Below, in pieces: positions 6,087 to 47,344 of a DNA stretch of 64,000 nucleotides (positions are counted from its first letter, which is position 1; the number at the start of each line of letters is the position of its first letter). Source of the stretch: Marsupella aquatica (taxonomy: Eukaryota; Plantae; Marchantiophyta); NCBI GenBank assembly GCA_973895155.1, contig OZ316891.1, positions 124,001 through 188,000 of the forward strand, given 5' to 3'. The translations under genes and the position numbers were made by a program. Under the pieces are notes generated by a model, which was given only the letters and a program-made list of their open reading frames with translations, was not told the origin of the DNA and searched no databases.

Positions 6087-6112
6087 ATCAGCCTATTCAT
6101 TAAAAGTGTATT
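6087..6112 (+). repeat. Left TIR atcagcctattcattaaaagtgtatt
   Basis: Exact reverse complement of 47319-47344. Confidence 0.95.
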
Positions 6113-6124
6113 ATTATTTGATTT

Positions 6125-6380
6125 ATGTACATTTGGGCAATGAAAAGTGTACTTTTGGGCTTGGAAAAGTGTACATTTGGCCAATGAAAAGTGTACATTT
6201 GGGGATAAAAAAGTGTACAATTGATCTAAAGAGTGTATATTTGGGCAATGAAAAGTGTACATTTGAGCATCAAAATATGTATATTTGACTTAAAAAGTGT
6301 ACATTTCAGTGCATTTAGTCTAGAAAGTGTAGCTTTGAGTGCAACAAAGAGTACATTTGGCCTAAAAAGTGTACATTTTC
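6125..6380 (+). repeat. Subterminal repeats, ~10 copies of AAAGTGTACATTTG
   Basis: Recurs roughly every 22-24 bp; ~4 more copies at 47215-47293. Confidence 0.9.
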
Positions 6381-6599
6381 CTGAAAAATTTTATTATAAT
6401 CATTTAAAATAAAGAAATTAATAAAAAATATTTTTAATTATGCAGAAAAAATAAACATTCATATTCATAATAATCAAAAGTTTAGAAAATGAGTAGATAG
6501 TCTACTAAGTAACTAAACACTCAATGGCATGGTCTCACAATATATATAACTCTTACATAAAAACTAGTAACTATCTAATTATACCTTAGCTAGTGACAA

Positions 6600-9500
6600 C
6601 TAAGTGTACTTGTCCATCCTTTGGAGATAACTTTGGACAGTTTGTAGAACATTTCGAGGAATCTTCAAACCTCTGCCAACCATGTTTTCTTCCTTCATTC
6701 CAGATTTAAAACCATAAATTGCAGAATTTGCATACTGCCAATGTTGAGTGTTCTCACCAAATCCTGGATCTCGTTCCCATGTCTTGGTGGACATGAAACA
6801 ATTGAGATACCTAGCACTCTCACTCACATCAAGTTTAGAGTGTTTAGGCCTCCACCATTCCACAGGGAACATTGGAGCATATTGTTGAGTCAAAGGAGGG
6901 TCTCTTGAAGATGCAATTGGGACTTCATGCTTAGGGTCCACCTGACCCAAAGCTCTCACCAACCAGAAATGACCTCCACCATTTTTCTTCTCCCAATCAT
7001 CCTCGGGTCGAAGAAACACAAAGTTTCCTTCACAAATATCCTGGAGGGGAATCCACCGTCCTTGTTCTCTCTCAGCTCGAGATCCAACAAATGGTGCTGC
7101 TTGATCTTCCATCTCTTCCAAGACTTCATTTTGAAGAGCTGTCATCTCTGCATTCTCCTCATCTTCACTTAGAGGACCACTCTGTTCGCATGCCGATTGG
7201 TTGACCTTGTAACCAGTGCCGTGGTTAGTCTTAGGCCAAAATCCATTTTTCAATGGAAATTGATTATTTCCCTCCCCTTCCATTGCAAGCCCATTTGACA
7301 ACAGCTCCACAATTCTTTCCCAATATTTAACAAGAGGAAATCTTTCCTTGTATGCTATTGACGTCTCATCAATGCAACTCCTTCTCAAAAAATCAAGGTA
7401 CTTGTTAAGGAATGGGATTATCTCTTCTGATTTTGTGTATCTCTCCTATGGATTTAGCTAAGGGTTGTCCACTGGGTAAAAGAAGAGAATTTGTTATTGG
7501 ATCAGTTGCCCAAATGCACCTTCCGCCAACGGGAGCCCAAGCTTGCTTAACATGGGACTTATACTCCCGCTTATACTGAAATATTGGTACATTATCTCTC
7601 ATAGAGAAAAGAAATGATACCGGTTTTGAGTGACCTTGAATATCTTTGACCTTAAAACTTTGAAGATATTCTTTGTAAGATGCAACTTCTTGTATCAATC
7701 TTGGAACTGGATGAATGCTCTCACATTCCCAAACCTCTGCCATTAGTGCAAGAAGGGTTGCAACTTCCTTGTGTTGAACTTGATATGATACCTTGGAAAA
7801 TAGTGCATCAACTTCTTCGTGCGTATGACCAACCATTAGAAAGGACATTTGAACAGTTTCAAATATTCCTCTACTCACAAGCTCCGAGCAAAATGCCATG
7901 ACCGTTTGGTTTTTGTTGTCCTTTGCTGAATTATCCATTTGCAATGTTAGGTGCCTTGGCAAGGGCATGAACAACGGACTGCCCTTCTCACCACCCACGT
8001 CCCCTCCATCATCCTCATCCTGTCGGGTTGGGATGGTCTCAGTCTGACTGTCGGCAACTCCATCTTCAGAACCAATATACCTATTTACTTGAATATTCTT
8101 TGGTTCCAAATATCCCAACAAAAATGCATCAAAGTCAAGTAGGGCTTGAAAGAAAGGTCTGTGAAGTTCCCAATGCAAGCCATCAAGCATGTCACCTGTC
8201 TTGTCTCCATTGTACTCTTCAAGATCTCGAAGACACTTAGCCAAGGATGTCATTGTGAAATCTGCATCTCTTGGCCAAAGGCCAGTGACACTAAAGTGTG
8301 CATATACTCCTGGATCTCTCCCGTGGGTCAACATCCCCGTGAGAGCGATAGGTAGCAGCATTCCATGACCCGAAAGTGATTTAGGAGTACTAACCATTTT
8401 TGGAATCCATGTCTTTGCTTGATCCATCTTGTCGTGAATAATGCAAAGATATTCTCCTGGATGTTGCTTGGCCATCACTCGATGAGCGTAGTAAACATAT
8501 CTACGTGACATTTGCTCACGAAGATGTTGAGCTCTTTTTTCTTCAATTTCAGCACGTTCTTTTTTCCTTCTCTCTCGCATCAAACTGTCTTTGTATTCAC
8601 AACAAAGCGTACACTTGGCAAATGCGCCATCCTTGTGAAAACTGAAGTTTGCAAATGATGTGCTCCATATCTTGTAGAGAGTGTTATCCGTAACAGGAGG
8701 AAGCCCTTCTTCCTTCATCTTTGTTCTCACATCTTCCAAAATCTCTAACTTTTTGTAACACGCTGGAAGTCGATACTCAATGTTGTCTGTCCCATGAGCC
8801 CCTCCATAAGGCATATGAGGCATTGGCTCTGCATTTTGAGTCAAAAATGCCTCTAGAAGAGCTCGCGCATGCAAGGTATTTGACCTTGTTTTCTTCAAGC
8901 CTGTGTTCCCATGGAACCCAATTTTGCAACCCTCCATGTATCTTCTCTTGTAATCATAATACTTGGTGTGACTAAAACCATGGATGGTTGCAAATGCATC
9001 TTTACAGATGACCATACCTTTGAGAACATGGTGTCCCTTATCACGAACATCATCCTCTCTATAGTGGAAGAGGTTGAAAATGTGTGATGTTTTGGACTCG
9101 CTAGACATCCCATGAAATTCCATCCTAACATCTTCTATATCTTCCCTTGGCATAATGAGACAACATTTATGCTTGCAGCAATTTACTCTTTTGATCTCAT
9201 CAATTGCGGCTTCTGTTGTTTTTGAAACTGCCTTGGTTTGCAAGAGCCTCCTTTTCTTCTCAACTGGATCAACTTGATTCCTCTTGTTGAAGTTATATGG
9301 CCTTTGACGACATCCGGATGCGGATCCAACCACATGATCTGGATTCAGATCATCCCTATCCATTGACTCCATATTCTCTGTACCTTCTACCAGAATGTCT
9401 GACAAAACTTTTCCAGTTGCTACTAGTTTTGTGTGATCAATTCGCCATTGAACCAAACTAATTACTCTCTTGTGAATGCTTGGAAAGTATTGCGATTCCA

Positions 9501-10425
9501 TGACATCTTTCACAACAACCCCTACATAGTCTTCTCCCAGGATTTCATCATCAACAGCCGCCGTTGCTTGAGGCATAGTGATAGTCCCAGTGGCAACATT
9601 ACTCGATCGTCCTGAACCAATGTATAATTCGACCAACTCTGACATCCAGTTGGACCGTTGGTAATAATCAGAATGAGTTTTGGTCGATTTTGTTGATGGA
9701 GAATGTGAGACAAAACTCTCCTCAATTAAAACGTCGCCATCACCTTGCTTCTTAGAGGAAGACTTTCTCCCTTCATCAACATTCCAACCTTTTTTATGAA
9801 CATCGGCCAAGTCCCAGAGAACCCATGAGTCTTTTGCCTCTTCAATTGTTTCAGCCCCATTGTGTATGTAAGGTAAAGCCTTACTACCATGAATAACATC
9901 AGTGATTTTCACACTGATCCGAGACTCACCAAGTAATATGTTGTGACATCGGTCCTTTGGATTTACCTTGAAAATAACTCCAAGGGCTACACAACACCCA
10001 TCAATGAGCATTTCAACCTCGTCCCCTTGCCTTAGAGTGTTTGATGCATCCTCCATAACAATTGTAGGAGATTTATCCAAGTTATTATCTGGTCGAGTTG
10101 AACAACTACCAGTACTGATGCATTTTTGGGAATCTAGAGTTATAGAGAGATACGCGCACGAGATCTCCCAAATAACACATGAGTCAATGGCATCAAAAAG
10201 ATTTTCTACCCTTGGTAGTGGAAATGGTAGTTTTCGAGTTGGCTCGAAAACCTTCTCCACGAGCACACCAATTCGATTATCTCCCAACAATATGTTGTGC
10301 ACCCTATCCTGGGGGTTAATTTTCTGAACTGTCCCACAACCGACATCATATCCATCAATTGTCAAGGTCACATCATCACCTCTTGAAAACCTTCCAGTCA
10401 TTCTCGGATTTAGTAACTTGCACAA
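6600..10425 (-). pseudogene. Sola1-like (DUF7869-type) DDD transposase, ~1270 aa when joined, with three N-terminal DUF8039/Tnp1-like domains; one frameshift near 7430; 5' part cut off by the LTR insertion
   Basis: ORF 7405..10425 has CCKHKC, CTLC, IIHDKMDQ, QMDNSAKDNKN and GHTHEEVDALFS. Removing one A in cacaaaatcag joins it to 6600..7388 (KSIGEIHK-SEEIIPFLNKYLDFLRR). Confidence 0.8.
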
Positions 10426-10469
10426 TTTTCAGAAAAACCATCACAAATCCGAATGACAAGAATTTGAAG

Positions 10470-12337
10470 TGTAGTTTGCCATAGAGAACCAAAAATCACA
10501 TTTTAAAGTCTCCAAACTCGGTATTCGTTCCCTTTAAGAACAAGATGGGGTTGGTTTGATGTAATAAACTAAAAACAAAGCTTTAAGCTCTTGTGTCACA
10601 CATAGTAATCAATCTTGACTACTTTAATCAGGTACTTTGAAGATCGCTCCACAGCGGTGAGTAGTTTTTGATGATAACTCAACATCAGATAACCTTCAAT
10701 TAAGCAAAAGATTGCAATTAACAAAACACAAGGAAAAATCTCTCAGAGTATGCTTAAGGGAGTCTGGAATAGACCAAGGTTACTCCTTAGACATAAGTAA
10801 TAATGGAATGACTTTAAGGGAATCCAAATCCACACAGCTTTTCAGATCTAAACTGCATACTAGAGTATCCTTTTAAAATGCCGGCAACATGTCTTGACCT
10901 TTCTTCCTAAGTGATACTTAGTCAAGATCTAAAAGGATAAATACTTCAGCATTTAGATGGTACTAAGCAACATGAAGGTGAAAACATCATTTCCAATGCA
11001 ACTTAAACTCAATGAGTTAACTCTAAGAACTTGTGAGATTACAATGTGTCACCAAAGCGGAATCTGACATTATAATTCACGAGATTCATAACTGAGGTTT
11101 TACTTCAAGTATTTGGGTTCCAAAATACAAGAAGGAGGTAAGTCTCTCCAAATGTTAAACCTGATCTCGAACTCATAGATTCATGATCAACTAGTTTAAC
11201 ACAAGGGAGAGGCAAAACTGCAAAACTTAACCATCTCTCTACACTAGGGGAAGAGGTATAAATAGTGATGAACTACAGAATAAGAGGTCACAGGGTCGAA
11301 GAGACATGCCTCTTCATAACCCTCAAAAAGTCAAAACGACGATTCAATAAGTGGAAAGCCGGAAAAAATGGCTAAGTATGAACTCTTAAACTCTTAAAAA
11401 CTTAAACTCTTAAAAACGTAAAAACTTAAACTCTTAAAAACGTAAAAACTTAAACTCTTAAACTCTTAATTTCGGTATACTAAAAATTGAGTAGATTCAA
11501 CTATTTTTAACTTTCTACTCCTGGTTCGGAAAACTCTGAAATTTTTCCAGCAGGGTTTCCTAGGTACAGACTACAGCCTAAAGAAGTCTCATAGCTTTTA
11601 AAGCTCTACAACACATTTAGAAAAATTGGTAAAAGTACTATACTTTTCAATACTAGCTAAAAAGATAGTCTCCTTCAAGCTTGTTGTCGAATATCATCGG
11701 GTTCGAGCAGCTCCACGTAGGTGACAGTCCGATTCTGTGTTACCTCCATCAGCTCAGTCTGACGTGGTGATCCTCTAGAGTAGGGTAGGCACCTTAGTTG
11801 TCTCTCAGGATACATCAAAGGCATTCGCTTCATCAAATAACAGGAATCTATACGAAGAGCTTCTCTGTATATCCCTAGTACATCATAGTTGTTGCAGGTG
11901 GCAGCATATACTTGGGGATAGTGATGCAGAAACTCATCACTATTCATCATCCTGGAATAGAAGGGTCGAAGTCTCCATTTGACATCTCTGAAATACCGGT
12001 TGAAGCTGGGCAGAGTTTGAGAGGTAAGGTGGAAGAGAAGTCAGTAATGAGCGCCTATGTCTTGCATTCCTTCCCTTTCAAGGTGAGCTCTTCATCCGTT
12101 GTGGAGTCCCGTTGAACTAGTTGTAAGATGTCACGATCACAGAGTCGCCAAATCTTAAGGTGTAACTCGTAAAGAAGTGAACTAGTAAACTCGTAAACTG
12201 AGTTTACTCGTAACTTAGGAACTTAGTAACTTTGAATGCTGTTTTAGTTACAGTTAGCAATAATTGCAGTCTAAACACCGTAAAAAATTTAAAAATTTTC
12301 AGTTTCTTCATGCTTTTGGAATTACCCACTACTTACA
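10470..12337 (-). repeat. LTR A1
   Basis: tgtagtttgcc...ccactacttaca; apparently identical to 15453-17320 and 20436-22303. Confidence 0.95.
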
Positions 12338-12340
12338 TAG

Positions 12341-12350
12341 CCCTCTCCTC
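12341..12350 (-). other. Polypurine tract (GAGGAGAGGG on minus); second copy 17324-17333
   Basis: Purine run 3 nt from the LTR start on the element strand. Confidence 0.75.
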
Positions 12351-12426
12351 AAGCGGCGCCGTGCCCTCACAAGCCTTTCTGAAGTCTTCCACCAGAACTA
12401 AATCGCCTTTGAAATGCACATTGGTT

Positions 12427-13221
12427 TCAATTGTGTATTAAGTTTGATACTTGACTGGACAATTTGTCAAGCAACTTGTATACTTGCTTAACTTTTGGTG
12501 AAATTGTGGAAATATCTGGTACTTGCTTCTTTTTCTTGGTTTTTGCTTTTTCAAATTCAGAGCTAGAGCTGGTTTCATCATTTGAAGAACTAGGTGTTGT
12601 CCTTTTAGTGTTCTCTTCACTGCTGTTGTCACTCCCCTCGTCTGACATGGATTCTGATTCAGAATTGAGTTTCTTTTTCTTTTTCTTCTTAATATATTTC
12701 TTGAGCTCTTTTTTCAATCTTTTCTTTCCAGACACTTCTGAATCAACATATTTCTGTGCTGCAGCTAAAGCTTCTCCATATGTGGTTCCACCTTCTCTTC
12801 TCACATATCTTGCAATTCTAGATGGCAGTCCATTTATGAACCAATCTCTGACTGTTGATTTTGATGTAGCCGGGTTGTATTTGTCAACTAACTCTTCCAG
12901 CTTATCTGCATATTTCCGAACAGATCCATACTTGTTCATTTTTAAATAAGAAATTTTTGTGAAGGCTCTTGCTGCTGCCCCATCTTCTTTGTATTTCTCT
13001 AAAAATGCAGCTTTTGTCTTTGTCCAGTCATTTTTATCTAAAAATCGATGATGCCACTTTTGTGCTCCTTTCTTCATAAGTCCTCCAAAAATGCTTGCCT
13101 TCTCAGCGTCTTGGCTATGTCCATTTGAAATTGCAGTAGCTTCAAACTCCTTTAAGTAGGTCTCTGCATCCTCTTTAGATGTCCCTTTGAAGGTGTCATA
13201 GCGAATATTATTCCGGGCCAT
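12427..13221 (-). CDS. gag: Truncated retrotransposon Gag (capsid-like and basic region, no zinc knuckle)
   Basis: MARNNIRYDTFKGTSKEDAETYLKEFE...WFINGLPSRIARYVRREGGTT is highly similar to the Gag in 60671..63724. Confidence 0.9.
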   Translation of the reverse strand: MARNNIRYDTFKGTSKEDAETYLKEFEATAISNGHSQDAEKASIFGGLMKKGAQKWHHRFLDKNDWTKTKAAFLEKYKEDGAAARAFTKISYLKMNKYGSVRKYADKLEELVDKYNPATSKSTVRDWFINGLPSRIARYVRREGGTTYGEALAAAQKYVDSEVSGKKRLKKELKKYIKKKKKKKLNSESESMSDEGSDNSSEENTKRTTPSSSNDETSSSSEFEKAKTKKKKQVPDISTISPKVKQVYKLLDKLSSQVSNLIHN

Positions 13222-14915
13222 GTTGATCAAATGAGTAGGAAGAAATAAACTAGGCTGTGAAGGAGTGGCATTGAGATTCAATCAGGTGGAGGAATCTTTT
13301 AGGTGCAGATGAGGCTCCTTGTTTCTTCTTCCAAATTGGTTGACTATTCTCACTCAGATATCCCTTATCTTGACTACCTGTGTCTTTTTTATAATTTGAA
13401 TAGAGACCGCCTTAAGCTCTCCCATAATTTTTGTTTAACTCTCATCAGTCCAAATGAGGGAGAATTGGGGTGAGCTCTAAGTGTGGTGCTAGTGTCACGG
13501 AAAACACTAACATTGTCTCTCATTTCTTGATCTGGTGTAGCATCTCTGATCAATCTTCCTGCAAGTCTAACTGGAAGTGCAAAAGCATTCCAATCGGATG
13601 GTGTTAGTTTATTCGTGGTAGCCATGGTCAAGGTTCACAGGATTGTTGACTCAAGGTAGCTCTCTCCTCATGAATTCAGGAAAATGGGACTTTGCAATTT
13701 GCTGAAGATTTGAATAGTCATATTGGTTAACTCTTTGGAGCTCTGAAGGGTCGTCATCTCGTAGCTTTCTTTGTCAGAGACTGAAGGAATGCGCTCTGCA
13801 CATTTGTATCAGTCTGAAGATTTGAATAGTTGCTGATTTTTCTTCGCGTCGTGACTTCCAATTTCGCTTCCCTTTGTCAGTCATTCCTCATTCTGAAAGA
13901 CATTTCTTTTGGAGGAGAGTTGGTGCGGGTGCATTCTTGGAGATCCTTGGTTTACAAGAGGCAGCTTCAATGGTCGCACCGTTCCGTCATTTCTCAAATC
14001 CACGCCCTTTCAAGTTTGCTCGATCCATGGCTTGTATGCCCCTTTGTTGACACTTCTCTGCATATGGTGTCCGCAAGCGTTGTGTCGTTTCATCGAGTTC
14101 TCGGCGAGGTGCGTCTCTTCCGTGTGTCCCGTCAACTTGTAACCCTTCAACTAGTAAACACTTAACTTGTAAACTCGTAAAGTCATAATCGTCACGACGC
14201 TTACCCGTAACTCGTAAGGGTTAACCCGCAATGCCTTATCCCCTCGTATCTCGGCGAGTCCTTAGTAGCAAAGTACCCTTTCCACTTCAGATTTCTCACT
14301 GCTTTAGCTAACCTACTTTATCTGTGCCTCCGATTTTGTCTTTGCATCAATGTACTAGCTAAGTCTTGTATAGAAATCACTATATATTCCTCTCTTGTAA
14401 TTCTTCCATTTAGCCTTAATATAACCAAATGTAGATTTACTCGTTCCCACCAAGTAATAGATAGCCAATTATGAACTCCATACTACATCTCACACTTAAC
14501 ACCAAAGTTTGCGCATATCTATTGTGCAAGATGGCATAAGATATTCTAAAAAATAAATAAAATCTCCAACTATTTATCTATGGCTTTTGCCGCCTAATTT
14601 TCCTAACAGTCTATCAAATTGGTTGCACTTTTATCTAAGTCGACTTCTCATAATGTAAGAAGTTCATACTCTTCCTATACTATAGATTTAATTGACCAAA
14701 GTGAACTGTCTCTTAATTTCCTATCTTTCTTCTCTACAATTATGGTAAGTTAAAGTCTACCAGCTCTCTTGATTTAATTAAATCAGACTTAATCCCTCCT
14801 CTAAAAGTAGCTTCTTCCTACCACAACTTAGGAAGTCATGCTATAATTAAAGTCCTCCTAACAATCATATGGAGACTTTACTCAATCTCCTTTCTTAATT
14901 CCAAAGCATTGCTTT

Positions 14916-15242
14916 TTAAGCACTTTTAAGCCTCTTCTTCTTAGCCTTCATTTTTCTCCTTCCTCTCATAACAAGGAGAACTCCTTCTCGAATTACCTCT
15001 GCAAATGCAGCTGGTGCATCTGTGAAAGTGTAAGGTCGAGCTTCCAAAACTTGAATTGACCATTCTTCATATGTATCCATAAGGAATATTTCTTTCTGTA
15101 ATTTCTCAATCAATTCAATTCTGAAATTTGACATCCACTGCCTGCATATCATATTACCCCTTCTCCAAGAGATAAACAATGAAGTCTTGAGAAAGATGTC
15201 CTTTCTATAAGAGGAATGGCCTTCCCTCCTATATCCATTCAT
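14916..15242 (-). CDS. Small leader ORF between PBS and gag in family A (copies 19899..20225 and 56450..56776)
   Basis: 108-aa ATG ORF; EARPYTFTDAPAAFAEVI resembles EVMPYSIQSAPEALLRVL at the same position in family D. Confidence 0.45.
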   Translation of the reverse strand: MNGYRREGHSSYRKDIFLKTSLFISWRRGNMICRQWMSNFRIELIEKLQKEIFLMDTYEEWSIQVLEARPYTFTDAPAAFAEVIREGVLLVMRGRRKMKAKKKRLKSA

Positions 15243-15424
15243 CTTTCTCCCTTGGTTATAATAGAGTTAAAATCAGAGTAGAGATAACTTCCTCCTAAAT
15301 GGAATTGGCCTAACTCCACTTACAATGGTTACTCTCTTTCTCCCTGGCCTCAAAATCTCTCTTAAAATCCAAGGCTTCTAATTTGGTCATTCACTGCCTA
15401 ATGTCAAACCATTCCTGAATCTGT

Positions 15425-15442
15425 TCCCCGGCAGCGGCGCCA
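15425..15442 (-). other. Primer binding site (tRNA-Asp type) TGGCGCCGCTGCCGGGGA; copy at 20408-20425
   Basis: One mismatch to the Athila-type TGGCGCCGTTGCCGGGGA; 10 nt from the LTR end. Confidence 0.85.
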
Positions 15443-15452
15443 AAAAATCTCA

Positions 15453-17320
15453 TGTAGTTTGCCATAGAGAACCAAAAATCACATTTTAAAGTCTCCAAAC
15501 TCGGTATTCGTTCCCTTTAAGAACAAGATGGGGTTGGTTTGATGTAATAAACTAAAAACAAAGCTTTAAGCTCTTGTGTCACACATAGTAATCAATCTTG
15601 ACTACTTTAATCAGGTACTTTGAAGATCGCTCCACAGCGGTGAGTAGTTTTTGATGATAACTCAACATCAGATAACCTTCAATTAAGCAAAAGATTGCAA
15701 TTAACAAAACACAAGGAAAAATCTCTCAGAGTATGCTTAAGGGAGTCTGGAATAGACCAAGGTTACTCCTTAGACATAAGTAATAATGGAATGACTTTAA
15801 GGGAATCCAAATCCACACAGCTTTTCAGATCTAAACTGCATACTAGAGTATCCTTTTAAAATGCCGGCAACATGTCTTGACCTTTCTTCCTAAGTGATAC
15901 TTAGTCAAGATCTAAAAGGATAAATACTTCAGCATTTAGATGGTACTAAGCAACATGAAGGTGAAAACATCATTTCCAATGCAACTTAAACTCAATGAGT
16001 TAACTCTAAGAACTTGTGAGATTACAATGTGTCACCAAAGCGGAATCTGACATTATAATTCACGAGATTCATAACTGAGGTTTTACTTCAAGTATTTGGG
16101 TTCCAAAATACAAGAAGGAGGTAAGTCTCTCCAAATGTTAAACCTGATCTCGAACTCATAGATTCATGATCAACTAGTTTAACACAAGGGAGAGGCAAAA
16201 CTGCAAAACTTAACCATCTCTCTACACTAGGGGAAGAGGTATAAATAGTGATGAACTACAGAATAAGAGGTCACAGGGTCGAAGAGACATGCCTCTTCAT
16301 AACCCTCAAAAAGTCAAAACGACGATTCAATAAGTGGAAAGCCGGAAAAAATGGCTAAGTATGAACTCTTAAACTCTTAAAAACTTAAACTCTTAAAAAC
16401 GTAAAAACTTAAACTCTTAAAAACGTAAAAACTTAAACTCTTAAACTCTTAATTTCGGTATACTAAAAATTGAGTAGATTCAACTATTTTTAACTTTCTA
16501 CTCCTGGTTCGGAAAACTCTGAAATTTTTCCAGCAGGGTTTCCTAGGTACAGACTACAGCCTAAAGAAGTCTCATAGCTTTTAAAGCTCTACAACACATT
16601 TAGAAAAATTGGTAAAAGTACTATACTTTTCAATACTAGCTAAAAAGATAGTCTCCTTCAAGCTTGTTGTCGAATATCATCGGGTTCGAGCAGCTCCACG
16701 TAGGTGACAGTCCGATTCTGTGTTACCTCCATCAGCTCAGTCTGACGTGGTGATCCTCTAGAGTAGGGTAGGCACCTTAGTTGTCTCTCAGGATACATCA
16801 AAGGCATTCGCTTCATCAAATAACAGGAATCTATACGAAGAGCTTCTCTGTATATCCCTAGTACATCATAGTTGTTGCAGGTGGCAGCATATACTTGGGG
16901 ATAGTGATGCAGAAACTCATCACTATTCATCATCCTGGAATAGAAGGGTCGAAGTCTCCATTTGACATCTCTGAAATACCGGTTGAAGCTGGGCAGAGTT
17001 TGAGAGGTAAGGTGGAAGAGAAGTCAGTAATGAGCGCCTATGTCTTGCATTCCTTCCCTTTCAAGGTGAGCTCTTCATCCGTTGTGGAGTCCCGTTGAAC
17101 TAGTTGTAAGATGTCACGATCACAGAGTCGCCAAATCTTAAGGTGTAACTCGTAAAGAAGTGAACTAGTAAACTCGTAAACTGAGTTTACTCGTAACTTA
17201 GGAACTTAGTAACTTTGAATGCTGTTTTAGTTACAGTTAGCAATAATTGCAGTCTAAACACCGTAAAAAATTTAAAAATTTTCAGTTTCTTCATGCTTTT
17301 GGAATTACCCACTACTTACA
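15453..17320 (-). repeat. LTR A2 (shared middle LTR)
   Basis: Same sequence as A1, offset 4983 bp; PBS on one side and PPT on the other. Confidence 0.95.
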
Positions 17321-17409
17321 TAGCCCTCTCCTCAAGCGGCGCCGTGCCCTCACAAGCCTTTCTGAAGTCTTCCACCAGAACTAAATCGCCTTTGAAATGC
17401 ACATTGGTT

Positions 17410-18204
17410 TCAATTGTGTATTAAGTTTGATACTTGACTGGACAATTTGTCAAGCAACTTGTATACTTGCTTAACTTTTGGTGAAATTGTGGAAATATCT
17501 GGTACTTGCTTCTTTTTCTTGGTTTTTGCTTTTTCAAATTCAGAGCTAGAGCTGGTTTCATCATTTGAAGAACTAGGTGTTGTCCTTTTAGTGTTCTCTT
17601 CACTGCTGTTGTCACTCCCCTCGTCTGACATGGATTCTGATTCAGAATTGAGTTTCTTTTTCTTTTTCTTCTTAATATATTTCTTGAGCTCTTTTTTCAA
17701 TCTTTTCTTTCCAGACACTTCTGAATCAACATATTTCTGTGCTGCAGCTAAAGCTTCTCCATATGTGGTTCCACCTTCTCTTCTCACATATCTTGCAATT
17801 CTAGATGGCAGTCCATTTATGAACCAATCTCTGACTGTTGATTTTGATGTAGCCGGGTTGTATTTGTCAACTAACTCTTCCAGCTTATCTGCATATTTCC
17901 GAACAGATCCATACTTGTTCATTTTTAAATAAGAAATTTTTGTGAAGGCTCTTGCTGCTGCCCCATCTTCTTTGTATTTCTCTAAAAATGCAGCTTTTGT
18001 CTTTGTCCAGTCATTTTTATCTAAAAATCGATGATGCCACTTTTGTGCTCCTTTCTTCATAAGTCCTCCAAAAATGCTTGCCTTCTCAGCGTCTTGGCTA
18101 TGTCCATTTGAAATTGCAGTAGCTTCAAACTCCTTTAAGTAGGTCTCTGCATCCTCTTTAGATGTCCCTTTGAAGGTGTCATAGCGAATATTATTCCGGG
18201 CCAT
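17410..18204 (-). CDS. gag: Truncated Gag, second identical copy
   Basis: Translation identical to 12427..13221. Confidence 0.9.
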   Translation of the reverse strand: MARNNIRYDTFKGTSKEDAETYLKEFEATAISNGHSQDAEKASIFGGLMKKGAQKWHHRFLDKNDWTKTKAAFLEKYKEDGAAARAFTKISYLKMNKYGSVRKYADKLEELVDKYNPATSKSTVRDWFINGLPSRIARYVRREGGTTYGEALAAAQKYVDSEVSGKKRLKKELKKYIKKKKKKKLNSESESMSDEGSDNSSEENTKRTTPSSSNDETSSSSEFEKAKTKKKKQVPDISTISPKVKQVYKLLDKLSSQVSNLIHN

Positions 18205-22303: not shown

Positions 22304-22379
22304 TGAAGAGACTCACAATTATCCATACGGTCATTTGATTGCCATTCCGCAAATCCAAACGTTGGCTCAACTATCACGC

Positions 22380-37789: not shown

Positions 37790-37923
37790 GCACAAGGGTG
37801 GAGAGTACTAAGGTTCTCAGCCAGTGACATGTAAGGGGCTCATGTAAGGGGGTACTGCACAACGGTGGAGAGTACTAAGGTACTCAGCCAGTGACATGTA
37901 AGGGGCTCATGTAAGGGGGTACC
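37790..37923. repeat. Two tandem 67-bp copies in the CACTA 5' region
   Basis: gcacaa.ggtggagagtactaaggt.ctcagccagtgacatgtaaggggctcatgtaagggggtac x2. Confidence 0.9.
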
Positions 37924-38775
37924 TCTACTATTTGAAGCTTTCTCACATAAAAAGCTTGAATGTTTGGCAATTGGTGAGTAGCACTCACTCACATAAGAAC
38001 CCTAAACTAAGACAATCAGCTTAGATAGTGGACCTGCCATTTTCCTTATGATGGGATGTTGTAATTAAGTGGTATCCCCCATCCAACTTCAAAGGTGCAT
38101 GGACAACCTTGAACCATGAACAATGTCCCTTGCACCTTGAAGAATGAGTGATTGAAAAGAGTAGGTAAAGTCAACATCGCAAAGGAGTCGCAACAAATGA
38201 GTGGAAACTTTGTGGAAGTGATACTTAAGACATATGTAGTGATAACACCCTAAACTTCCATAACCTTGTCACAATAGTCAATAGTGGTTTGGTAAAAAAT
38301 AGGGGGTATTTCTACTAGTGCCAAATCCAAGAGGGTTGTTTGGATTTGGACCATCCAAATCCAAGTGGGTTGTTTGGATTCGGACCATCCGAATCCAAGT
38401 GGCTTGATTGGATTCAGATGGTCCGAATCTAAGAGGGTTGTTTGGATTCGGACCATCCGAATCCAAGTGGGCTTCTTGTATTAGATTCGGATGGTCCAAA
38501 TCCAACAGGCTTGATTGGATTCGGATGGTCCAAATCCAAGAGCCCTCAATCTCACTTTGACAGTGATTTCTTAAAACAAATTTCATGGATTTGAAGTCCA
38601 ATATGAATTTTCACTCTCCAATGCAGAGAGTGATCTGGTGAATACAACTCTTGCCATTTCAGAGGCAGACTGCGACGATGGGCTCATTTTGGAGGACCGT
38701 GATCCAGGATTTCGGTGAGGACTTGAGTTCTCGCGAGTAAACTTCCGCCTGAATTCATTTAACATTTAGGATCCA

Positions 38776-41700
38776 GTGTTATGTGTCAAGATCAAGACAG
38801 GCAACAACCAAACATTGGTCATCGGACCCGTGGTCTCTGTGGGAATGATAGGAAGAGGAATGAATTCTATCATTGTAGAGGTGTCGGACACGATGAGGTG
38901 GGCAAAGTTGCAACTTCCGTCGAAGGCTTTCTCGGCCGAGTTCAATGTGGATGGTATGCAAGTGGGGAATTAAGTGTGTTGTTGATGGGATTCTTTCCAA
39001 AATCCTACACAAAGGAGAAGATTATTGGAGGACTGAAGGGAATGCTTCCTTTGGACATTTTTTATGGGTTTCTTTATTTGAAACTCAACATTGTAAACAA
39101 CCCATCAAAGTTCTCTCTTCCATCCACATGGACTCTTAACAATTTGCTTGAGAAAGCAGGTCTAGTGTCACCAGACTCAAATGTTTGGATCACCAAGGCA
39201 CTAGCCTTTGCACACACGCTTGACCTGGAAAAAGCAAATCTATGGGTAGAGTCTTTGGTGAAGTTGAGGAAAAGTACACAACCACAGAACATAATTGAGT
39301 CTACGCCAGCCAAAAGAACTCCAGCAACTACGATGGAGACAACACAAACTACTGCAGCAACAACCATGGATAGAGCGGCAGGGAAGCGAAAGCAGAGGGA
39401 GAAGAAGCTTCCGGTTGAGAAACCTACTTCAGTTGAGAAGAAGATCACGGCTCCAGCCAAGAAGAAGTCAAGGGAGAAGAAGAAACAAAAAACCGACACC
39501 GGAGTTGTGAATTCAACTCCTGTAGATTTTTCATTACATGCTGAAGATGAGGGTGATAGGCCACATGCTCCAGAGGAGAAAGACGTCTTAGAAGGGAATG
39601 AAGTTCTTCAACAAATGGAGCAGTACTATACTTTTGGGATAAACGAAATTTTTCTGATCCCAGTTGAAAGTATTTTTGCCGCACCAGCGAGACTATGCTA
39701 TCGGATGATGAATTTTGATCATGTGCAAGACATTGCTGATTCCATGATCAAAACACCTGGGCATGAGCCACATGTCGCTGATTTGATTCCTTTTAACGTC
39801 AAGCGAAGAAAGGTACTCCATTTTGAGAATACGGAGTCGGACCGGAAGGATTTTTTGGCCGGAGTGAAAAAGGGCGAGGTCCAATTTCTAGCCGTTAGTG
39901 GTCAGCACTCTGCGAGAGCTGCGAGATGGATTCGTGATTGGGCAACGAAGGATGCCAAGCTCACCCAGTTGGCCAAGAAGTTAGAATTCAGGAAATCCAT
40001 AATATTGTCTGATCGCACACCGTCTTCAATTCTTGTTGAGCACTCCATGAGATCGAACGCCATCAATAGCACGATGGTGTTTCAGTCTTGCTTTAAAGAT
40101 ACAGTTGTCCATGCGAGGCGGCAGTTTGTTGAATGTGGAAATCCAGACAAACCAAAACATGGCGACAACAAAACAAATGCTCAAGACAACCAAAAATTTC
40201 AGGTAAGAAATGTGATTACTTTGTATGCATTTCTCTACCATAGAGAGTAATTCTATTTTGGATTCGGATGGTCTCAGTCCGACACGATTTGTCAAAGAGT
40301 ATTGGAACTTTTGGAATGTTTAGTACGAGTTTTGTTTTTGATTGAGACCATCCGAATCCAAAACTATTATCGCACATTAGAATCCTTTTTTTCCAACCCT
40401 TGAGTTGGGGATAACTGACTAGCTTTCCTTTTGGATTGTAGGATTGGTTGGCTCTGGCAAGAATGACTATGGGCAGGAAGGACTTGCGAAATGTATACTG
40501 GCTACTTTTTGCGGACAATGATCTTTTTGAGTTGTGGCGGTTAGTCTGTGAGATGTGGTTGCATGGGAAACTTCCTGATGGAGCTGGGATGGAAGGAAAT
40601 AACAAGTCCAAAAAAGCAATTACCATTGCCATGTTTCGTCCCTTTGATGGTGAGTTGATCTCACAGAAAGACATCACAAAAATCCTGACACAAGTGAAGT
40701 CAGGAAAGGCATTGCTGAAGAAAGATGCCACAAATAAATCTGACATACCCTCAATAGAGGAGCTTGCGAAGGATGTGAAAAAAGTGAGGAAGCTCAAGTC
40801 TCTCATTGAAGAGTACTACTTTGGCAAGGATCCAAGGAATTTCCCTTCGGATACCGACTGGAAGAAAGTTGTAGAGGTTCTGCCATTGTTGAGTGTTGAC
40901 GCAGAATTCAAGAGATGCAGAAGAGCGGCTGGTGAAGTTTTTTTGTCAAATCTGTTGAAGCCAAATCATACCAGGGAGAGTGCAATCTTGCCAATAGCTC
41001 TGGTGATGCGCCTTGATGACATTTATTGCCAGAAGTTTGGCGGAGGGACACATTCTCGGAGCCAACCGTGGGTCAGGTTCTTTAGTGACAATCTAATGAA
41101 AATAGTTGATCCACCAGCAATAGAAGAATCATCTCCAACGTGCTCACTTGCCATTGTTGACTTCAGTCGAGATCACCAGAAGCTGTGGATGGAAGCAAAA
41201 GTTTTGGTCTTCTACAATACATTGTGGAGCTACCACAAAATCTTACAATCGTTGTAGCCATAACTGTTCATCCGGGGTCTCTTGCAATGAATGTCCTAAG
41301 CTCACTTCAAAAATTGGGACAAGAGAAATCTCACACGATTCACATTGAGTATGGGAGTTATTCTCGAGAGGATCAACCGCACCCGCTTGATTCATGTTGG
41401 GGAGGCGGAATTGAAGAAGTTATATTCGCAGGAATTTCTTGAGATGAAAATGTCAATTGGAATGATGTTTTCAAACCCAATCACCCAAAGCCAAAATTCT
41501 TTTTTGGTTCAAAAGATACTGATTTTGAGGTCACCAAGATTGACACTGGGAAGGCAAAGGTTGACACAGACGACGTGTCAAAACCCGAAGATCTAAAAAT
41601 GATGCTGACCCCAGAAGAGGCGACCAAGGTTTTGCACATGGCCCCTCGATTTGAGATAGTTGGTGCTCGTGGTGGTTGGGTGAATCCACATGCCAAACCC

Positions 41701-42177
41701 ACGCGGATGATACAGAGGATTATTGAATCCTTGTCAGAAGCTGGAGACTTGATTCTTGATTTTTTCTCGGGTGGTCAAGTGATGAAGACAACATTCTTGG
41801 TGCAACGCGAATGCTTTGTTTATTGTGACTCTCAAGATGAGAGACACTTTGTGGAAGCGTATGCTTCATTCCTTTGTGAGAGGGTCCCCTCAATCAAGGA
41901 AAATTGGGATCCTCGTGGTGGGAGTTCTAGGCATTGGAAACCCACTATTGCGGATGTTTCTGCCAAACATGAATCAGCTGATAATTCTGAAGAAGTGGGC
42001 GCTAAGTCAGTCAAAGATAATGGGGCATCAGAGGTGGCGTATGCAAAGAATTTGGATGACCGTGTAGGTCAAAGTGAAAGCATAGAACCCTACGATGTTG
42101 ATGATAATGTTGGTCTTGCACACGCCCTTCATCAGGTGCAGGTGCCCAAAGTTAGAACTAAGAGAGGCTTCTCTTAG
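38776..42177 (+). pseudogene. ParB/sulfiredoxin-like domain fused to a beta-class N4/N6 DNA-methyltransferase-like domain; intron 40203-40441; probable C-terminal tail at 45471-45682
   Basis: IPVESIFAAP..YRMMNFDHVQDIADSM..QFLAVSGQHSARA (ParB-like); SLAIVDFS, EEVIFAG, NPHAKPTRMIQRIIESLSEAGDLILDFFSGG..QRECF (MTase motif X/I order). Frameshift ~41200 and TGA 41440-41442. Confidence 0.65.
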
Positions 42178-42307
42178 TGCTTGACTCCTTGTAGTGGGCA
42201 TGCCACTCACAATCACCTTCTTATCTCCCTCCTCTTGAACAACCAACCTGCAAACACACCTCCAAGTCTTGTGGCTCCACTCCCACAACAAAAATTGTAA
42301 GGAGTTG

Positions 42308-42325
42308 TCCCCGGCAGCGGCGCCA
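42308..42325 (-). other. tRNA-Asp-type PBS of truncated family B element
   Basis: tccccggcagcggcgcca on plus; 20 nt from the LTR end. Confidence 0.8.
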
Positions 42326-42345
42326 AAAACAAAGGTGGGACTCTA

Positions 42346-45300
42346 TGTCAAACACTTGTCAAGGAGCTTAAGCGGCTTTTCTCCCCAAAAGACTACCTAA
42401 TACCTGCTCCATATCATACCAGGGTCACAAAGGATTGACAAAACTTCTGAAATGTGCCTACAATGACTAATCACTCCATACATAAGTAGTTTCAACTCTC
42501 CACTTCTAGAGAGGTAGTCCCCTTGACTACTTTTGTACTCACACCCTTCCCCTCTCCTCTACTCCCAAGGATCAGCAAGGGGGATCTCCGCTCCAAGCTG
42601 TCACCTTAGAGAAGAGTCTCACACAAACACCCAAGAACCAAAGTACTTTCCTCTTCAAGCTTAAGTCTCCTCAAGACCCTCAAAGTAGTGTTACCCCTCA
42701 ACCTTGCCCCCCCTGGCCTTGGTTTGGGTCCACACATCCCCTTTGAGCTCTAGAGAAGGCTCCTCTATCTAAGGACTCTTCCTCTTGTTCTTACTTCTTG
42801 TTAACACCACACACCAAGCAAAATACTTTCCACCCTCAAGCTATAATCCTCTCTAAGTCTCAAAGTAGTGCTCTACCTTAACCTTGCCTCTTGGCCTTGG
42901 TTTTGTACTAGCACATCCCCTTCAAGCTTAGACCAAGATTACATCATAGCATGGACTCTTCTCTTGCTCTCATATGCTTCAAATGCACTCACACTTAATG
43001 CTCACAATGAAGATTGGCAAGTCTCCTTTTATTGCATCACCTTTACAACAAAAGTTCACTACACATTCTCCACACTAAGCATGGACCACCTCTCCCTTCT
43101 CAAGCTTAGCCCTACCTTGACAAGGTAGAGATTCCACTTAAGAGATGAGACTCCCGGTCCCTAACAAAGGAAAACTTTCTCCTTATATACTATTCTCCTT
43201 CCACACCACACCAAGCTTGACCTGGGGTCCAACTACTCCTCCCCCAAGTCCTCCTAACACACAAAGTGCAACTCTATAGTTTGTAGCTCACTCTACAACC
43301 TATTGCTTGACTCCTTCCAAGCCCTGGAATATGCCACACATGAGTTGCATGCTTTGACCTCCAAACCTGATCTCACTTATGGTCCTCCTCACCAGCTTCC
43401 CAACCCACTTGAAAGCTCGCAAAAAGAGTGAGTGAGTCTCAAGTTGTGTCATGTCAAAGTTGGCTCCTTATTTACTAGTTCTTACTTACTACCCCGACCT
43501 ATCAACTTACTTTCCTTACCCTAACGGTCTTGCACCTTTACCCTCTCTTCTCCATGTATCCTAACTTGGGTGACACGGGTGCAAGAAGTGTCGGCCTAAA
43601 AACCTGGTCTTACTTCCCCCATGCCGACTCCCGTTTGCAAGCTATGGGGACCCCCTTGTGGCCTCCGCTAAAAATATATGAGTGATTATTTTTCTGGGTT
43701 TCCACCTTCACCGAGGGGTGCCTTACCTTCCCCTAACTCAGCACAAAAAAATTTGGGCCCCAACGGATACCCCTAGCTAAAGTTATGCCCATTCTCCCAA
43801 GGCTATTTTTGGTGTAAAGCGGGTGTAAGCGGCGACCCGATTACACTTGAACCTTACACGCCCCTTATGGGGATTTCACGTGTCATGAGGGGAGAGTACT
43901 CTCATTATACTCACATTTCTTATGAAGAAGATTGATAAGGACACCAATTTTTGCAGCATTTTCCTCTCTCTTAAATTCAATCTAAAATGGCAGCATTCTC
44001 TATTGGATCGAATGACAGCAGGTCAATTGATAGCTCAGCAGGTCTACAGCACCCTTCTCAGTCCACCTCCATAGCCATCCAGCCTTGCAAGTGATTCAAA
44101 ATCGCAGCAGAATTTTGCAGCAGCCATAGCCCACCAATTCGCAGCTTGCAGCACAATAGCACAGTAGCAGATTCGAAGCATAGCAACTGATTCGAAGCAC
44201 AGGAGCAGCATCCATAGCTTGATTCCTTCTCAACAACTAGCTCTATTCCAATCACTTAGCCAAGCAGGTCTCTCTTCTCAATTTCGTAGCTGCCCACCTC
44301 TGCAATTTCACAGCTAGCAGCAGCATCCATCAATTCAGCAGCATCAAGGTAGCAGCCAGCCAATTCTCGTGAGTATCTCATGCCTGATTAATAGCAGCAC
44401 CTCTAATCTATTGTGCCGCTGCCATAGCAGCAAGCAGCCTTCCCAATTCAAAGCCAGCCTCCCTATTCCAATCAGCAGCCATAGCTCACAATTCAATTTC
44501 ACAGTAGCAGCTAGGTCAAGTCCTTCTCAGCAGCAGCTAGCTCAATTCAATCCCGCACCTGCCTATTCAGATCAAGAGTGGCCTATTTTGATGAGCACCA
44601 GCCCTTCAATTAGCCCACCTTGTGCATTCCTGCCCATGTCGTGCTTGCCTGACCTCGTGCTAGTCTGGTCGCAGCCACGTCGACACGTTTTGACACTTAG
44701 AAAAATTTTGTTTTCCTCTCAGGAGAAACAGTTATACTGGCCCCTCTTGAAGGCCATTCCATAATTCACTCAAATGTCCAAACATACTTCTGAGCATATT
44801 TCTGGAATCCTTGGACATAGGACTCACTCCTAAATTTATCAAACTCTCTAAATACTCCATAACGACTTTCCTAAAAATACATAAGTTTGACCATATCTAT
44901 TAAAGCGCATTACTATTCCAAATCTTTGTGTTTCCAAAAAGTAACAAAAGGTGACAAATTATTTCTGAGACAATCCAGGGATATTATGGTCTATACTTAA
45001 CTCAATTCTAACCTCGAACCCACAAAATTTACCCCTTGGCTATTTTCTCCGGGGCCCGCTAGTTGGTTATTTTAATTTCTGTCAAAATACTCACAACTCC
45101 TAGGTTGAGACCCCACTTGACTTCATACTTTTTCAGGGTTCCCTAGGGACCTCCCAACACCCATGGGAGAAATATCAGCCAAAAATAAGATGTCAGGTGT
45201 CGGGTCATTTTCCGGTCCCGACTTAGTCGCCTATCCTAACTAAGGGTGGAACATTTATTGCCTACCAAAATCACATTACTTATCCCTTTACATTTGCTTA

Positions 45301-45470
45301 GAACAACACATTTTCTCCCTTCCATGATTTCCTACTAGCCTTTCCTAGTGACTTAGGGTTGTAAACCCTAAGTACTTTGCTAACACTACAACAACTTTCT
45401 TACTATTCCTTGTACAAACAACAAAAAAATTGACAAGTTCCTTGCATACCCTATATTGAGCCGGTCCACA
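42346..45470 (-). mobile_element. Family B 5' LTR (3.1 kb) with PBS and a short leader remnant (~42180-42345)
   Basis: TG...CA ends match solo LTR 51228-53221 in inverted orientation; no second LTR or TSD seen. Confidence 0.8.
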
Positions 45471-45917
45471 GTGGGCCAAATAGAGGCCAAGAAGTTTCAT
45501 TGGATGCTGCTCCATCGATTCTTAACAGGAAGGAGTATAAGAGAGGAGAATTGGGATTGATAACTCCTGTTTGGACGTCACTTTATTGGGTAGAACAAAG
45601 TACTTCAGATGTCAATTTTGAAATCCAAGAGGAGCTGGGTGTTGACATTATTGATGAATACGGATCTCTTTTTTCAGACTGAGATCAAACCGTCTGACTT
45701 TCCATTTTTTCATACCAATCTAAAATACTTCTCGGTCTCACAGAATGCGGTCAGCAATTAGAGCCTCGATATCCACCTACGCTCTTTGGGGCTTCTAAAA
45801 ATGGTATGTAGGTTTTTTTGTTGTTAGTCATTGTCTTGTATTTTTGGACTGAGACAATCTCAGTCCAAAGTTCAAATTTGGTTTTCTTTCTAAGAGTTGT
45901 ATTTGTTGCCCTTGCAG

Positions 45918-46954
45918 AATTGAGACCTTGTCCCATCAAGCGGAAGTTGCTCATTTTGGATCTTAACAAAATACTTTGGGATTCACTTGAATTCCAAAGC
46001 AAGGGCAAATCCAGAAACATTGTGACCCCAAGTGGAGTGCATTGGGATAGATCAAATGGAACTAGTCGCATGTATACAGAGAGGCCAGGGTTCCATGAGT
46101 TTCTAAAGTTGGTTTTTGACCGGTTTGACGTTGCAATTTGGACATGTGCTGGGATGCCGCGGACAGTGAAAATGTTGAACATGATGTTCACTGTTGAGGA
46201 GCGGTTGAAACTGAAGTTTGTATTCACACAGGTGGAAGCCTTTGACACAGGCATTCAAAGGCATGACATTACAAATGGAAAGGCAAATGTGCTATTGAAG
46301 GATTTTCGGGTGGTATAGAGTGCATTTGGAAATCTATATGATGAAACCAACACACTCCTTGTGGATAACTCCCCCTTGAAGGCATTTGCCAACCCAGACA
46401 TGACCGGACTATTTCCAGTGCCCTACACACATGCCAATCGTGGAGACAATTTTCTTCTAACAATTCTTTGGCCATGTCTTGAGAAACTGTCACATGCAAG
46501 TGACATTCGTTGTTATCTTCTCCTAAACTCTCCAAAGTGGTCTCTATTGCACATTAAGAGAGACAAGGAAAAAAATGAGATTACTTATGATCAACTTAGT
46601 AAGAGATGTGCAGCAAAAATTTGGAAGTCACAGTATAGGCATAGTGTGCTGGACCTCAATAGCAATGAGATTCCTTGGGCTATGAAGCACCGTATATGTA
46701 GCTTACGTCCTGAGGTGGAACTTGACGATGCACTTGTCACCTCACTTGCTAGATCATTTGTAGGACGGGAATATTCAGGTCTGTATAGAGAAAATCCCAT
46801 ACACTTTTTGCGGGAGATTATAGCAGTTAGGAACAACACCACCAAATTTCATCTCCCTGAAGATAAAGGGAGTTGCAACCGTGACATTAGGGTAGATAGT
46901 AAAGGAGACAAGGGCACGTGCTCAAATAAATATTGTAAGGAGCACTTTGTTTAG
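45918..46954 (+). pseudogene. FCP1/NIF-family HAD phosphatase-like gene, premature TAG at 46316-46318; small upstream exon 45744-45803
   Basis: KLLILDLNKIL, RPGFHEFLKLVFDRFDVAIWT, LLKDF..V*, ETNTLLVDNSPLKAFANP; the two ORFs are in frame. Confidence 0.85.
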
Positions 46955-47318
46955 AGATCTGACTCATGTTAAGCCCATTAGATAGTAAAAAATGGGTGCC
47001 AGCCCTGGATATTCATTGTAAGTTTGGACACAATTGTATATAATTATTTCACACATTATCAATCAATGGTCCTTGCCTAGGCTTCTTTGTGCGTAAATGT
47101 TTTTACAAGTATGATCTCTATCCCATGGTTCTTTGTGAACTAATAAGTAATATAATACTATTATAATTAATATAATATAATATATTAATATAATACTAAT
47201 CAGATTTGGCCTATAAAGTGTACATTTAGGTATCAAAAAGTGTATATTTGGGCTTCTTAAAGTGTACATTTGGGGACATAAAAGTGTACATTTCAGGACT
47301 GATTTGTGAACAAACGAA

Positions 47319-47344
47319 AATACACTTTTAATGAATAGGCTGAT
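47319..47344 (-). repeat. Right TIR of the Sola-like element
   Basis: aatacacttttaatgaataggctgat followed by TSD cttt. Confidence 0.95.

Follow-up and report, generated by a model that had tools for sequence, protein, structure and literature searches.

A decayed Sola1-like transposon of the liverwort Marsupella aquatica carries a ParB/methylase-like helper gene and arrays of a palindrome

The 64,000 nt stretch of Marsupella aquatica DNA analysed here (the window; contig OZ316891.1, 124,001-188,000, forward strand, with all coordinates given as window positions) contains a DNA transposon in which the transposase gene is accompanied by a gene with ParB-like and methylase-like parts, by FCP1-like exons and by arrays of a palindrome. 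The reading that we favour, and hold to be reasonably probable, is that a multicopy, cut-and-paste Sola1-like transposon is represented here by a decayed copy, and that its helper likely binds the element's own palindromes and would help to keep the element expressed rather than methylate its DNA. The features are as follows, with strand in parentheses where there is one.

6083-6086: left target site duplication (TSD), CTTT
6087-6112 (+): left terminal inverted repeat (TIR), 26 bp
6126-6378: 6 left subterminal matches to a ~22-bp repeat around AAAGTGTACATTT, at which the transposase likely acts
6600-10401 (-): Sola1-like DDD transposase, DUF7869, with DKMDQ, QMDNS and GHTHEEVD, N-terminal TNP1/En/Spm-like repeats and one frameshift
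10470-22303 (-): nested Gypsy-like LTR retroelement, three tandem LTRs, TSD TGAAG; outside the core
22380-23488: palindrome array 1, 16 sites TTGGATTCGGA-NNN-TCCGAATCCAA, period mostly 66 bp, upstream of the transposase
24462-24591 (+): predicted exon 1 of the ParB-methylase gene, with ATG, open frame, GTAAGT donor and a phase that fits the acceptor at 38662
24629-24865: left part of palindrome array 2, with 6 sites repeating every 34 bp, inside predicted intron 1
24891-38320 (-): nested CACTA element, CACTAG...CTAGTG, splitting array 2; outside the core
38340-38539: right part of palindrome array 2, with another 6 sites
38663-40202 (+): exon with an N-terminal beta/alpha domain and a ParB/Srx-fold domain, with SGQHS at 39897; interrupted by two stops and one frameshift
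40258-40361: a pair of variant palindromes within the conserved intron 3' of the ParB domain
40442-42140 (+): exon with a helical domain and an N4/N6-methylase fold of the beta class; motif IV is replaced by DFSR at 41159, and DFFSGG is at 41758
42141-45433 (-): nested truncated LTR-retroelement fragment, PBS-like site near 42309; approximate ends, no TSD
45434-45682 (+): C-terminal end of the ParB-methylase ORF, DEYGS conserved
45744-45803 (+): predicted small exon, bounded by an AG acceptor and a GT donor and sharing the frame of the FCP1 exon
45844-45868: palindrome variant in the FCP1 intron
45918-46954 (+): exon resembling an FCP1/NIF-type HAD phosphatase, with DLNKIL as motif I and a premature stop codon at 46316
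47204-47296: right subterminal 22-bp repeats, 4 matches
47319-47344 (-): right TIR
47345-47348: right TSD, CTTT

The two TIRs are identical at 26/26 bases and CTTT is present at both ends of the element. Joining the flanks without the element gives ...RPEASMAEGYVLDESLGFLSEYM..., in which a CACTA frame of the Tnp2 family is open and matches ...RPEASMALDYIQEETLGFLTEYM... of the nested CACTA element, and the CTTT duplication is fixed at this one site because the interrupted host frame is restored on excision. The empty site is also represented by loose contig ends at 47344 and 47347 in two of four runs. Removal of the three nested insertions leaves a core of 12,701 bp, in which the transposase lies on the minus strand and the ParB-methylase gene is divergent from it. 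A preliminary description had delimited a single element by its TIRs, TSD and restored CACTA frame and had placed its core at ~12.7 kb, both of which are borne out here.

That this copy is decayed, as also proposed earlier, is apparent from a transposase frameshift near 7405-7445 together with stop codons at 38716, 38767, 41440 and 46316 and frameshifts near 38950, 41220 and 42120 in the ParB-methylase and FCP1 parts. Contigs from other copies lack the breaks at 38718 and 38950 in all four runs and the break at 42120 in three of the four, and a 1,319-bp contig that is ~86% alike and covers the methylase tail and FCP1 represents a diverged copy. No other full-length copy bearing a TIR at each end was seen, which counts against the explanation we favour. 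Comparison with homologues suggests that coding sequence adjoining the insertion at 42141-45433 has been lost, and no joint across 42140-45433 is present among the 15 of 63 contig joints listed.

The transposase matches DUF7869 (E=3e-43), and its DKMD, DN and GHTH..D motifs are invariant in plant and oyster homologues. To judge by these motifs, and with moss Sola1 being the known plant group, it is a putative member of Sola1. The 4-bp TSD (from one site), the 26/26-bp TIRs and the subterminal repeats fit a Sola element, in support of the earlier report of a Sola-like transposase on the minus strand, and the protein would act on the TIRs together with the subterminal 22-bp repeats. A 4-bp TSD is given both for Sola1-1_Ec32 of Ectocarpus (PMC12477816) and for Sola2. 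Membership of Sola2 was not supported, as the DF.EN, SDG and HGK..D motifs of the published alignment (PMC3627910) are not matched, compared by eye, by DKMDQ, QMDNS and GHTHEEVD.

The preliminary description had also recognised a divergent ParB/methylase-like gene; both folds are predicted from our models, with the correction that the ORF runs on beyond the third insertion. The ParB exon was modelled at pLDDT 83, and its top Foldseek rows are Noc, ParB, PadC and sulfiredoxin (prob 0.85-1.00, E 4e-3 to 4e-2), with ParB/Noc first at prob 1.00 and E=4e-3, a value above 0.001. Its motif reads GQHS in 33 of 42 motif matches and includes R in none, so that the homologues do not have the GxxR-box arginine of the ParB CTP pocket. 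This motif and the Foldseek E-value both count against the explanation we favour. A confidently modelled helical domain follows, for which the fold lists are filled by the methylase domain and do not demonstrate a ParB-type HTH. The family includes 142 relatives at E<=1e-3, many of which end at the same intron 3' of the ParB domain, and scans with the ParB alignment recovered no relative in viral contigs (0 of 134 stretches) or in prokaryotic genomes (0 of 38).

The 25-bp palindrome occurs at 31 sites, all of them inside the core and mostly in predicted introns, and at none in 100 shuffles. The family is placed upstream of the transposase and in introns of the ParB and FCP1 parts; the arrays between the divergent genes had been noted previously, and the three further palindromes in the ParB and FCP1 introns are added here. 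The CG of the palindrome is its most mutated position, where the 62 half-sites show C>T 12 times and G>A 9 times, and the core has a CpG o/e of 0.40-0.76, so the element was host-methylated and not fully protected. By analogy with ParB/parS and with VANC acting on the non-coding repeats of VANDAL, the helper likely grips the palindromes of its own element, and the ParB part would load as a dimer on the arrays between the divergent genes and on the intronic sites. VANC, encoded by VANDAL (MuDR) elements, has been shown experimentally to bind dense motif arrays, which tandem repeats form both within introns and between genes, although the analogy is functional only, as VANDAL belongs to another superfamily and its 9-bp motif is not palindromic (PMC5735166).

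The methylase exon matches N6_N4_Mtase (E=3.6e-6), with CcrM as its top structural match (Z 15.2, rmsd 4.1, 205 aligned); M.RsrI was matched by profile (E=1.9e-7), there are further matches to M.MboIIA, PvuII and bdelloid N4CMT, and a search of PHROGs returned weak methylase matches only. In the model the permuted Rossmann fold of the beta class is present, with motif IV before motif I. The catalytic motif IV of beta-class methylases is (D/N/S)PP(Y/F/W), which is found in 0 of 15 aligned rows of the family; the nine rows covering the position, as located from strand order and the start of the alignment to CcrM, have DFSR, DLAR, DFAR, DLTS, DLIA or DLI. Conservation extends to the initial Asp of motif IV, to a K that precedes motif I and to motif I itself as D.FSGG; this motif I is one residue shorter than that of M.RsrI and is absent altogether from two Riccia models. 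Since the catalytic motif is missing from all 15 rows, the methylase part is probably a pseudoenzyme, to judge by sequence, and may retain a role in binding SAM or DNA.

The FCP1 part matches NIF (PF03031) with E=1e-6 and 9e-5, and UBLCP1 weakly (E=0.03). As no start codon of its own precedes motif I, it probably consists of exons joined by splicing and not of an independent third gene; the FCP1-type phosphatase proposed earlier is supported as an NIF-like, integral part of the cargo. Motif I of FCP1/SCP (NIF) HAD phosphatases is DxDxT, and this is matched neither by DLNKIL in the element nor by DVEGLL in Riccia P0183, such that phosphatase activity is uncertain. Spliced onto the ParB-methylase transcript, these exons may act on the RNA polymerase II CTD or on chromatin at the bound element, which is the weakest step of the mechanism we propose.

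We think it improbable that the helper works as an N4-cytosine or N6-adenine methylase and marks the element's own DNA. The complete beta-class fold and the residues conserved at motifs IV and I are in its favour, as is the presence in each palindrome half-site of GANTC, the target of CcrM, although so short a word is a lead only; it is opposed by the family-wide lack of the catalytic motif, by the shortened or missing motif I, and by the three intronic palindrome variants, which include non-GANTC half-sites. Of the earlier suggestion that the element marks, binds or protects its own DNA, binding is probable, marking is doubtful with motif IV degenerate throughout the family, and full protection is contradicted by the decay of CG. 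We give similarly little credence to the ParB protein being a transposition cofactor, comparable to TnpA of En/Spm, that bridges or compacts a long element and is not a chromatin regulator. ParB proteins are known to bridge DNA and spread along it, and these elements are long; however, the palindromes are internal, near the divergent promoters and in introns, and the ends hold the different 22-bp repeat. Helper genes do occur in giant elements (PMC12477816).

A stronger contender, though still the lesser possibility, is that the ParB-methylase gene, perhaps with FCP1, is a selected and promiscuous cassette that moves across transposon families and has the Sola element as one carrier. Consistent with this, for 11 of the 13 ParB-family models of Riccia none of the 25 transposase tags sampled is a neighbour, a sparse sampling that weakens the point, and none of 80 transposase loci from metagenomes (~30% identity for the most part, 29 of them at least 8 kb), where the transposase relatives are distant, AT-rich and decayed, has a ParB or methylase gene. 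Red-algal PAG genes (bioRxiv 10.1101/2025.02.11.637652) and fungal TET/JBP genes are also reported to shift between superfamilies. Against it are linkage to Sola1 in Ectocarpus and to the same transposase in two other liverwort genera. In Riccia sorocarpa R1sor_005697 (ParB part plus NIF) adjoins the transposase R1sor_005696, a single adjacent pair with a chance probability of 0.03-0.11, and R1sor_010355 combines ParB and transposase pieces in one gene model, implying a same-strand order as opposed to the divergent order in M. aquatica; in Calypogeia fissa the ParB-methylase CAM6082376 is seven accessions from the transposase CAM6082369, with both records giving a 66.6-Mb contig. The Riccia and metagenome counts, the chance probability of the adjacent pair and the same-strand order in R1sor_010355 also weigh against the reading we favour. 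Such a cassette would be compatible with the self-binding mechanism. That the cargo genes inserted independently, or are pieces of the host picked up passively, is very improbable and already largely refuted, even though three other insertions did enter the element and NIF-like fragments lie close to a transposase fragment at one independent metagenome place only (L007-L009). Cargo with termini of its own, named in the preliminary description as what would count against a single system, was looked for, and the cargo genes, which are thus integral, are not bracketed by any further pair of inverted repeats having a TSD of at least 2 bases; moreover the palindrome is common to the transposase and cargo regions, the ORFs and intron are conserved across species, and the linkage recurs in Riccia and Calypogeia. 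An inverted repeat at L007 (1205/12485) was rejected as a pair of element ends, as L031 has the same sequence outward on both sides.

The self-binding helper that we favour has published counterparts, and the earlier view of the system as undescribed does not hold. Sola1-1_Ec32, at 21.5 kb with a 4-bp TSD, has a ParB plus N4/N6-methylase gene on the opposite strand, for which its authors propose a self-binding and self-modifying role, and its best blastp match is moss Sola1-1_PPa (PMC12477816). It shares with the M. aquatica element giant size, TSD length, gene orientation and frequent nested insertions, but is from a brown alga and, compared by description, has AACCG termini and a 282-bp imperfect TIR rather than ATCAG and a 26-bp perfect one; palindrome and phosphatase have no occurrences in the main text, and its methylase is presented as potentially active whereas the liverwort family is degenerate at motif IV. 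In red-algal Plavaka elements PAG2/PAG3 include a ParB-like protein beside tandem inverted-repeat arrays, with self-binding proposed, and a PF01555 methylase within the same cassette (bioRxiv 10.1101/2025.02.11.637652). These differ in that the transposase is of the EnSpm/Plavaka type, ParB forms a fusion with a 2OG oxygenase and a separate gene joins the methylase to SET, and the available passages include no FCP1. A literature search for a DNA transposon combining an FCP1 phosphatase with ParB found none, although subscription papers, Repbase and algal supplements may hold land-plant examples; as far as these searches reach, the land-plant lineage, degenerate methylase, FCP1 module and intronic sites are new relative to the algal elements.

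ParB-bearing accessory genes of algal giant DNA transposons were reported in 2025, in passages that include no test of function (PMC12477816; bioRxiv 10.1101/2025.02.11.637652). The present lineage brings such genes into land plants, and into liverworts, which are genetically tractable; the 25-bp palindrome confined to the element is an unusually clean candidate binding site, so ParB/parS-like self-recognition by eukaryotic transposons becomes directly testable, and a methylase part that is perhaps no enzyme changes the mechanism to be considered. A more speculative extension, which we rate as rather unlikely, is that bryophytes have an ancient and widespread Sola1 clade with a complete, phage-derived parS/ParB-like module, in which a clamp on intronic palindromes, a dead methylase reading modified DNA and a spliced effector resembling a Pol II CTD phosphatase would act together; if true, silencing would be countered by a mechanism that differs both from VANC and from the 'self-methylating' model proposed for algae. 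Phage fusions of ParB with an N6_N4 methylase (ESM Atlas; Iyer et al. PMC4738411) are similar in domain order and folds and are the likely ultimate source of the helper gene, which differs in being spliced, eukaryotic and degenerate at motif IV. These fusion proteins are the nearest named ESM Atlas clusters, with feature scores of 0.77-0.79 that provide a lead, the bar being 0.9.

The element is bounded by perfect inverted repeats and interrupted by three insertions, the removal of which leaves 12,701 bp, in agreement with the ~12.7 kb core of the preliminary description.

Features of the element (window positions)
6087-6112 and 47319-47344: terminal inverted repeats, 26 bp each, perfect, with CTTT flanking both
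10470-22303: Gypsy-like element with three LTRs, target site duplication (TSD) TGAAG
24891-38320: nested CACTA element, splitting one palindrome unit in two
about 42141-45433: truncated LTR fragment

Joining the flanks with a single CTTT restores a host site with an open CACTA Tnp2-family frame, RPEASMAEGYVLDESLGFLSEYM, which fixes the TSD at 4 bp, and empty-site contigs are present in two of four public runs. AAAGTGTACATTT repeats with 22-bp spacing lie at both ends (six left, four right). The repeats and the open joined frame bear out the single element proposed previously, and a search for separate termini around the accessory genes found no second inverted-repeat pair with a TSD of at least 2, the only candidates being two ten-base pairs (TSD 0-1).

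The transposase was correctly placed on the minus strand, in an ORF with its ATG at 10401 and a DUF7869 match. It matches 53 proteins (29-64% identity), and its conserved motifs DKMDQ, QMDNS and GHTHEEVD appear to fit the Sola1 pattern. These motifs differ from the published Sola2 alignment in its accessible part (PMC3627910); moss Sola1 is the known plant group (PMC12477816). The closest homologues that carry a species or genus name come from Calypogeia fissa, Riccia sorocarpa and Ceratodon, which makes a liverwort the probable host. The copy is indeed decayed, with a single transposase frameshift near 7405-7445; three of its breaks are absent from other copies. The transposase N-terminus (9300-10401, minus strand) matches a TNP1/En/Spm domain (PF03017; PF26133 in homologues), as it does in Calypogeia, and this domain was possibly borrowed from CACTA elements.

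The divergent helper gene has an exon at 38663-40202, for which a search of 1.84 billion representatives gave 142 relatives (E<=1e-3); of 16 looked up by name, 13 are from Riccia and one from Calypogeia, and many relatives terminate at the same intron. Its N-terminal ~220 residues (38663-39390, plus strand) are confidently modelled as a beta-sheet and helical domain. The predicted folds agree with the proposed ParB/N4-N6-methyltransferase-like gene: the model of homologue P0002 (pLDDT 83) best matches Noc/ParB (prob 1.00, E=4e-3), and that of Calypogeia homologue P0065, representing the next exon (pLDDT 59 on average, with better values where the chain is folded), matches beta-class amino-methylases, with 38 Foldseek matches at E<=1e-3 and a Z of 15.2 against CcrM (rmsd 4.1, 205 aligned). 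Profile comparison of the methylase exon with M.RsrI gives E=1.9e-7. The ORF resumes beyond the LTR fragment and stops at a conserved DEYGS. Among named Atlas clusters, phage ParB-methylase fusions come nearest, with scores short of the confidence threshold.

A PF03031 match at 45918-46954 (motif I, DLNKIL) agrees with the phosphatase described earlier, but not as a gene with its own start: the frame lacks an ATG ahead of motif I, and a predicted exon of 60 bases (AG acceptor, GT donor) lies 61 bases past the methylase stop, so that the FCP1 exons are likely spliced onto the helper transcript. In an independent case, a ParB part and a NIF domain are united in a single Riccia gene model, P0183.

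The palindrome TTGGATTCGGA-NNN-TCCGAATCCAA occurs at 31 sites, all within the core (0 in 100 shuffles). As proposed, arrays lie between the divergent genes, with 16 sites upstream of the transposase and 12 in the predicted first helper intron, and a further three are in later introns (two in the next helper intron, one in an FCP1 intron). Its most mutated position is the CG, which points to host methylation.

Canonical motifs are DPPY, GxxR and DxDxT, and the CcrM target is GANTC. Motif I of the helper methylase is D.FSG(G/S) in eight rows of the family alignment, and the motif IV position reads DFSR, DLAR, DFAR, DLTS, DLIA or DLI in the nine rows covering it. The catalytic (D/N/S)PP(Y/F/W) is present in none of 15 rows, which makes the domain, in our reading, a probable pseudoenzyme. 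Active methylation by the helper of the element's own DNA, the "marking" suggested previously, is accordingly improbable from this degenerate motif. The mechanism we favour, with some reserve, is that the ParB helper would recognise the element's internal palindromes and thereby sustain expression. Self-binding to motif arrays has an experimentally tested analogue in the VANC anti-silencing proteins (PMC5735166).

Whether the parts travel together has a mixed answer. R1sor_005696 (transposase) adjoins R1sor_005697 (ParB and NIF), R1sor_010355 combines ParB and transposase pieces in one model, Calypogeia CAM6082376 and CAM6082369 are separated by seven accessions, and a diverged contig covers the methylase tail and FCP1. 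However, for 11 of the 13 ParB models in Riccia none of the 25 sampled transposase tags is a neighbour (p=0.03-0.11 for the one adjacency), no ParB or methylase occurs at 80 distant metagenome transposase loci, and no second full-length copy was seen. NIF-like fragments occur at one metagenome place only, represented by three loci (L007, L008, L009). They are three decayed tandem NIF/FCP1-like fragments in AT-rich DNA (L007 2294-5369, minus strand), ~5 kb upstream of the distant DUF7869 transposase fragment and divergent to it.

The system cannot be called undescribed. Like the window element, Ectocarpus Sola1-1_Ec32 (21.5 kb) has a 4-bp TSD and an opposite-strand gene (1104 aa) with ParB and N4/N6-methylase, for which self-binding and self-modification are proposed (PMC12477816), and the ParB-domain PAG3 of Plavaka elements similarly adjoins inverted-repeat arrays, as reported in a Bostrychia preprint (bioRxiv 2025.02.11.637652). 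The element is a land-plant variant of these recently described ParB-helper giant transposons; the earlier observations are confirmed and their interpretation partly supported. We found no published report of the FCP1 addition, the liverwort case or the degenerate motif; subscription papers, Repbase and the algal-paper supplements may hold land-plant examples.

The two Gypsy units in 10470-22304 are 100% identical across 6,852 bp, reflecting either tandem duplication in the very recent past or an error of assembly. Related sequence recurs at 54397-58065 (98%) and, in diverged form, at 59442-61772; positions 60668-63724 hold a gag/protease ORF. Two different LTR-like fragments share an 870-bp block (42346-43215 and 52354-53221, 99% alike). 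The nested CACTA junctions lack a clean 2- or 3-bp TSD (left ...CCATC, right CCAAA...). Upstream of its Tnp2 gene, at 33160-35499 (minus strand), this CACTA encodes BRCT domains (E=5e-11) together with NSD-like PHD fingers (E=2e-5), and is thus a second element with chromatin-type cargo. An exon at 1224-1478 (plus strand) resembling F420-dependent NADP oxidoreductase (E=5e-8) is probably part of a host gene.
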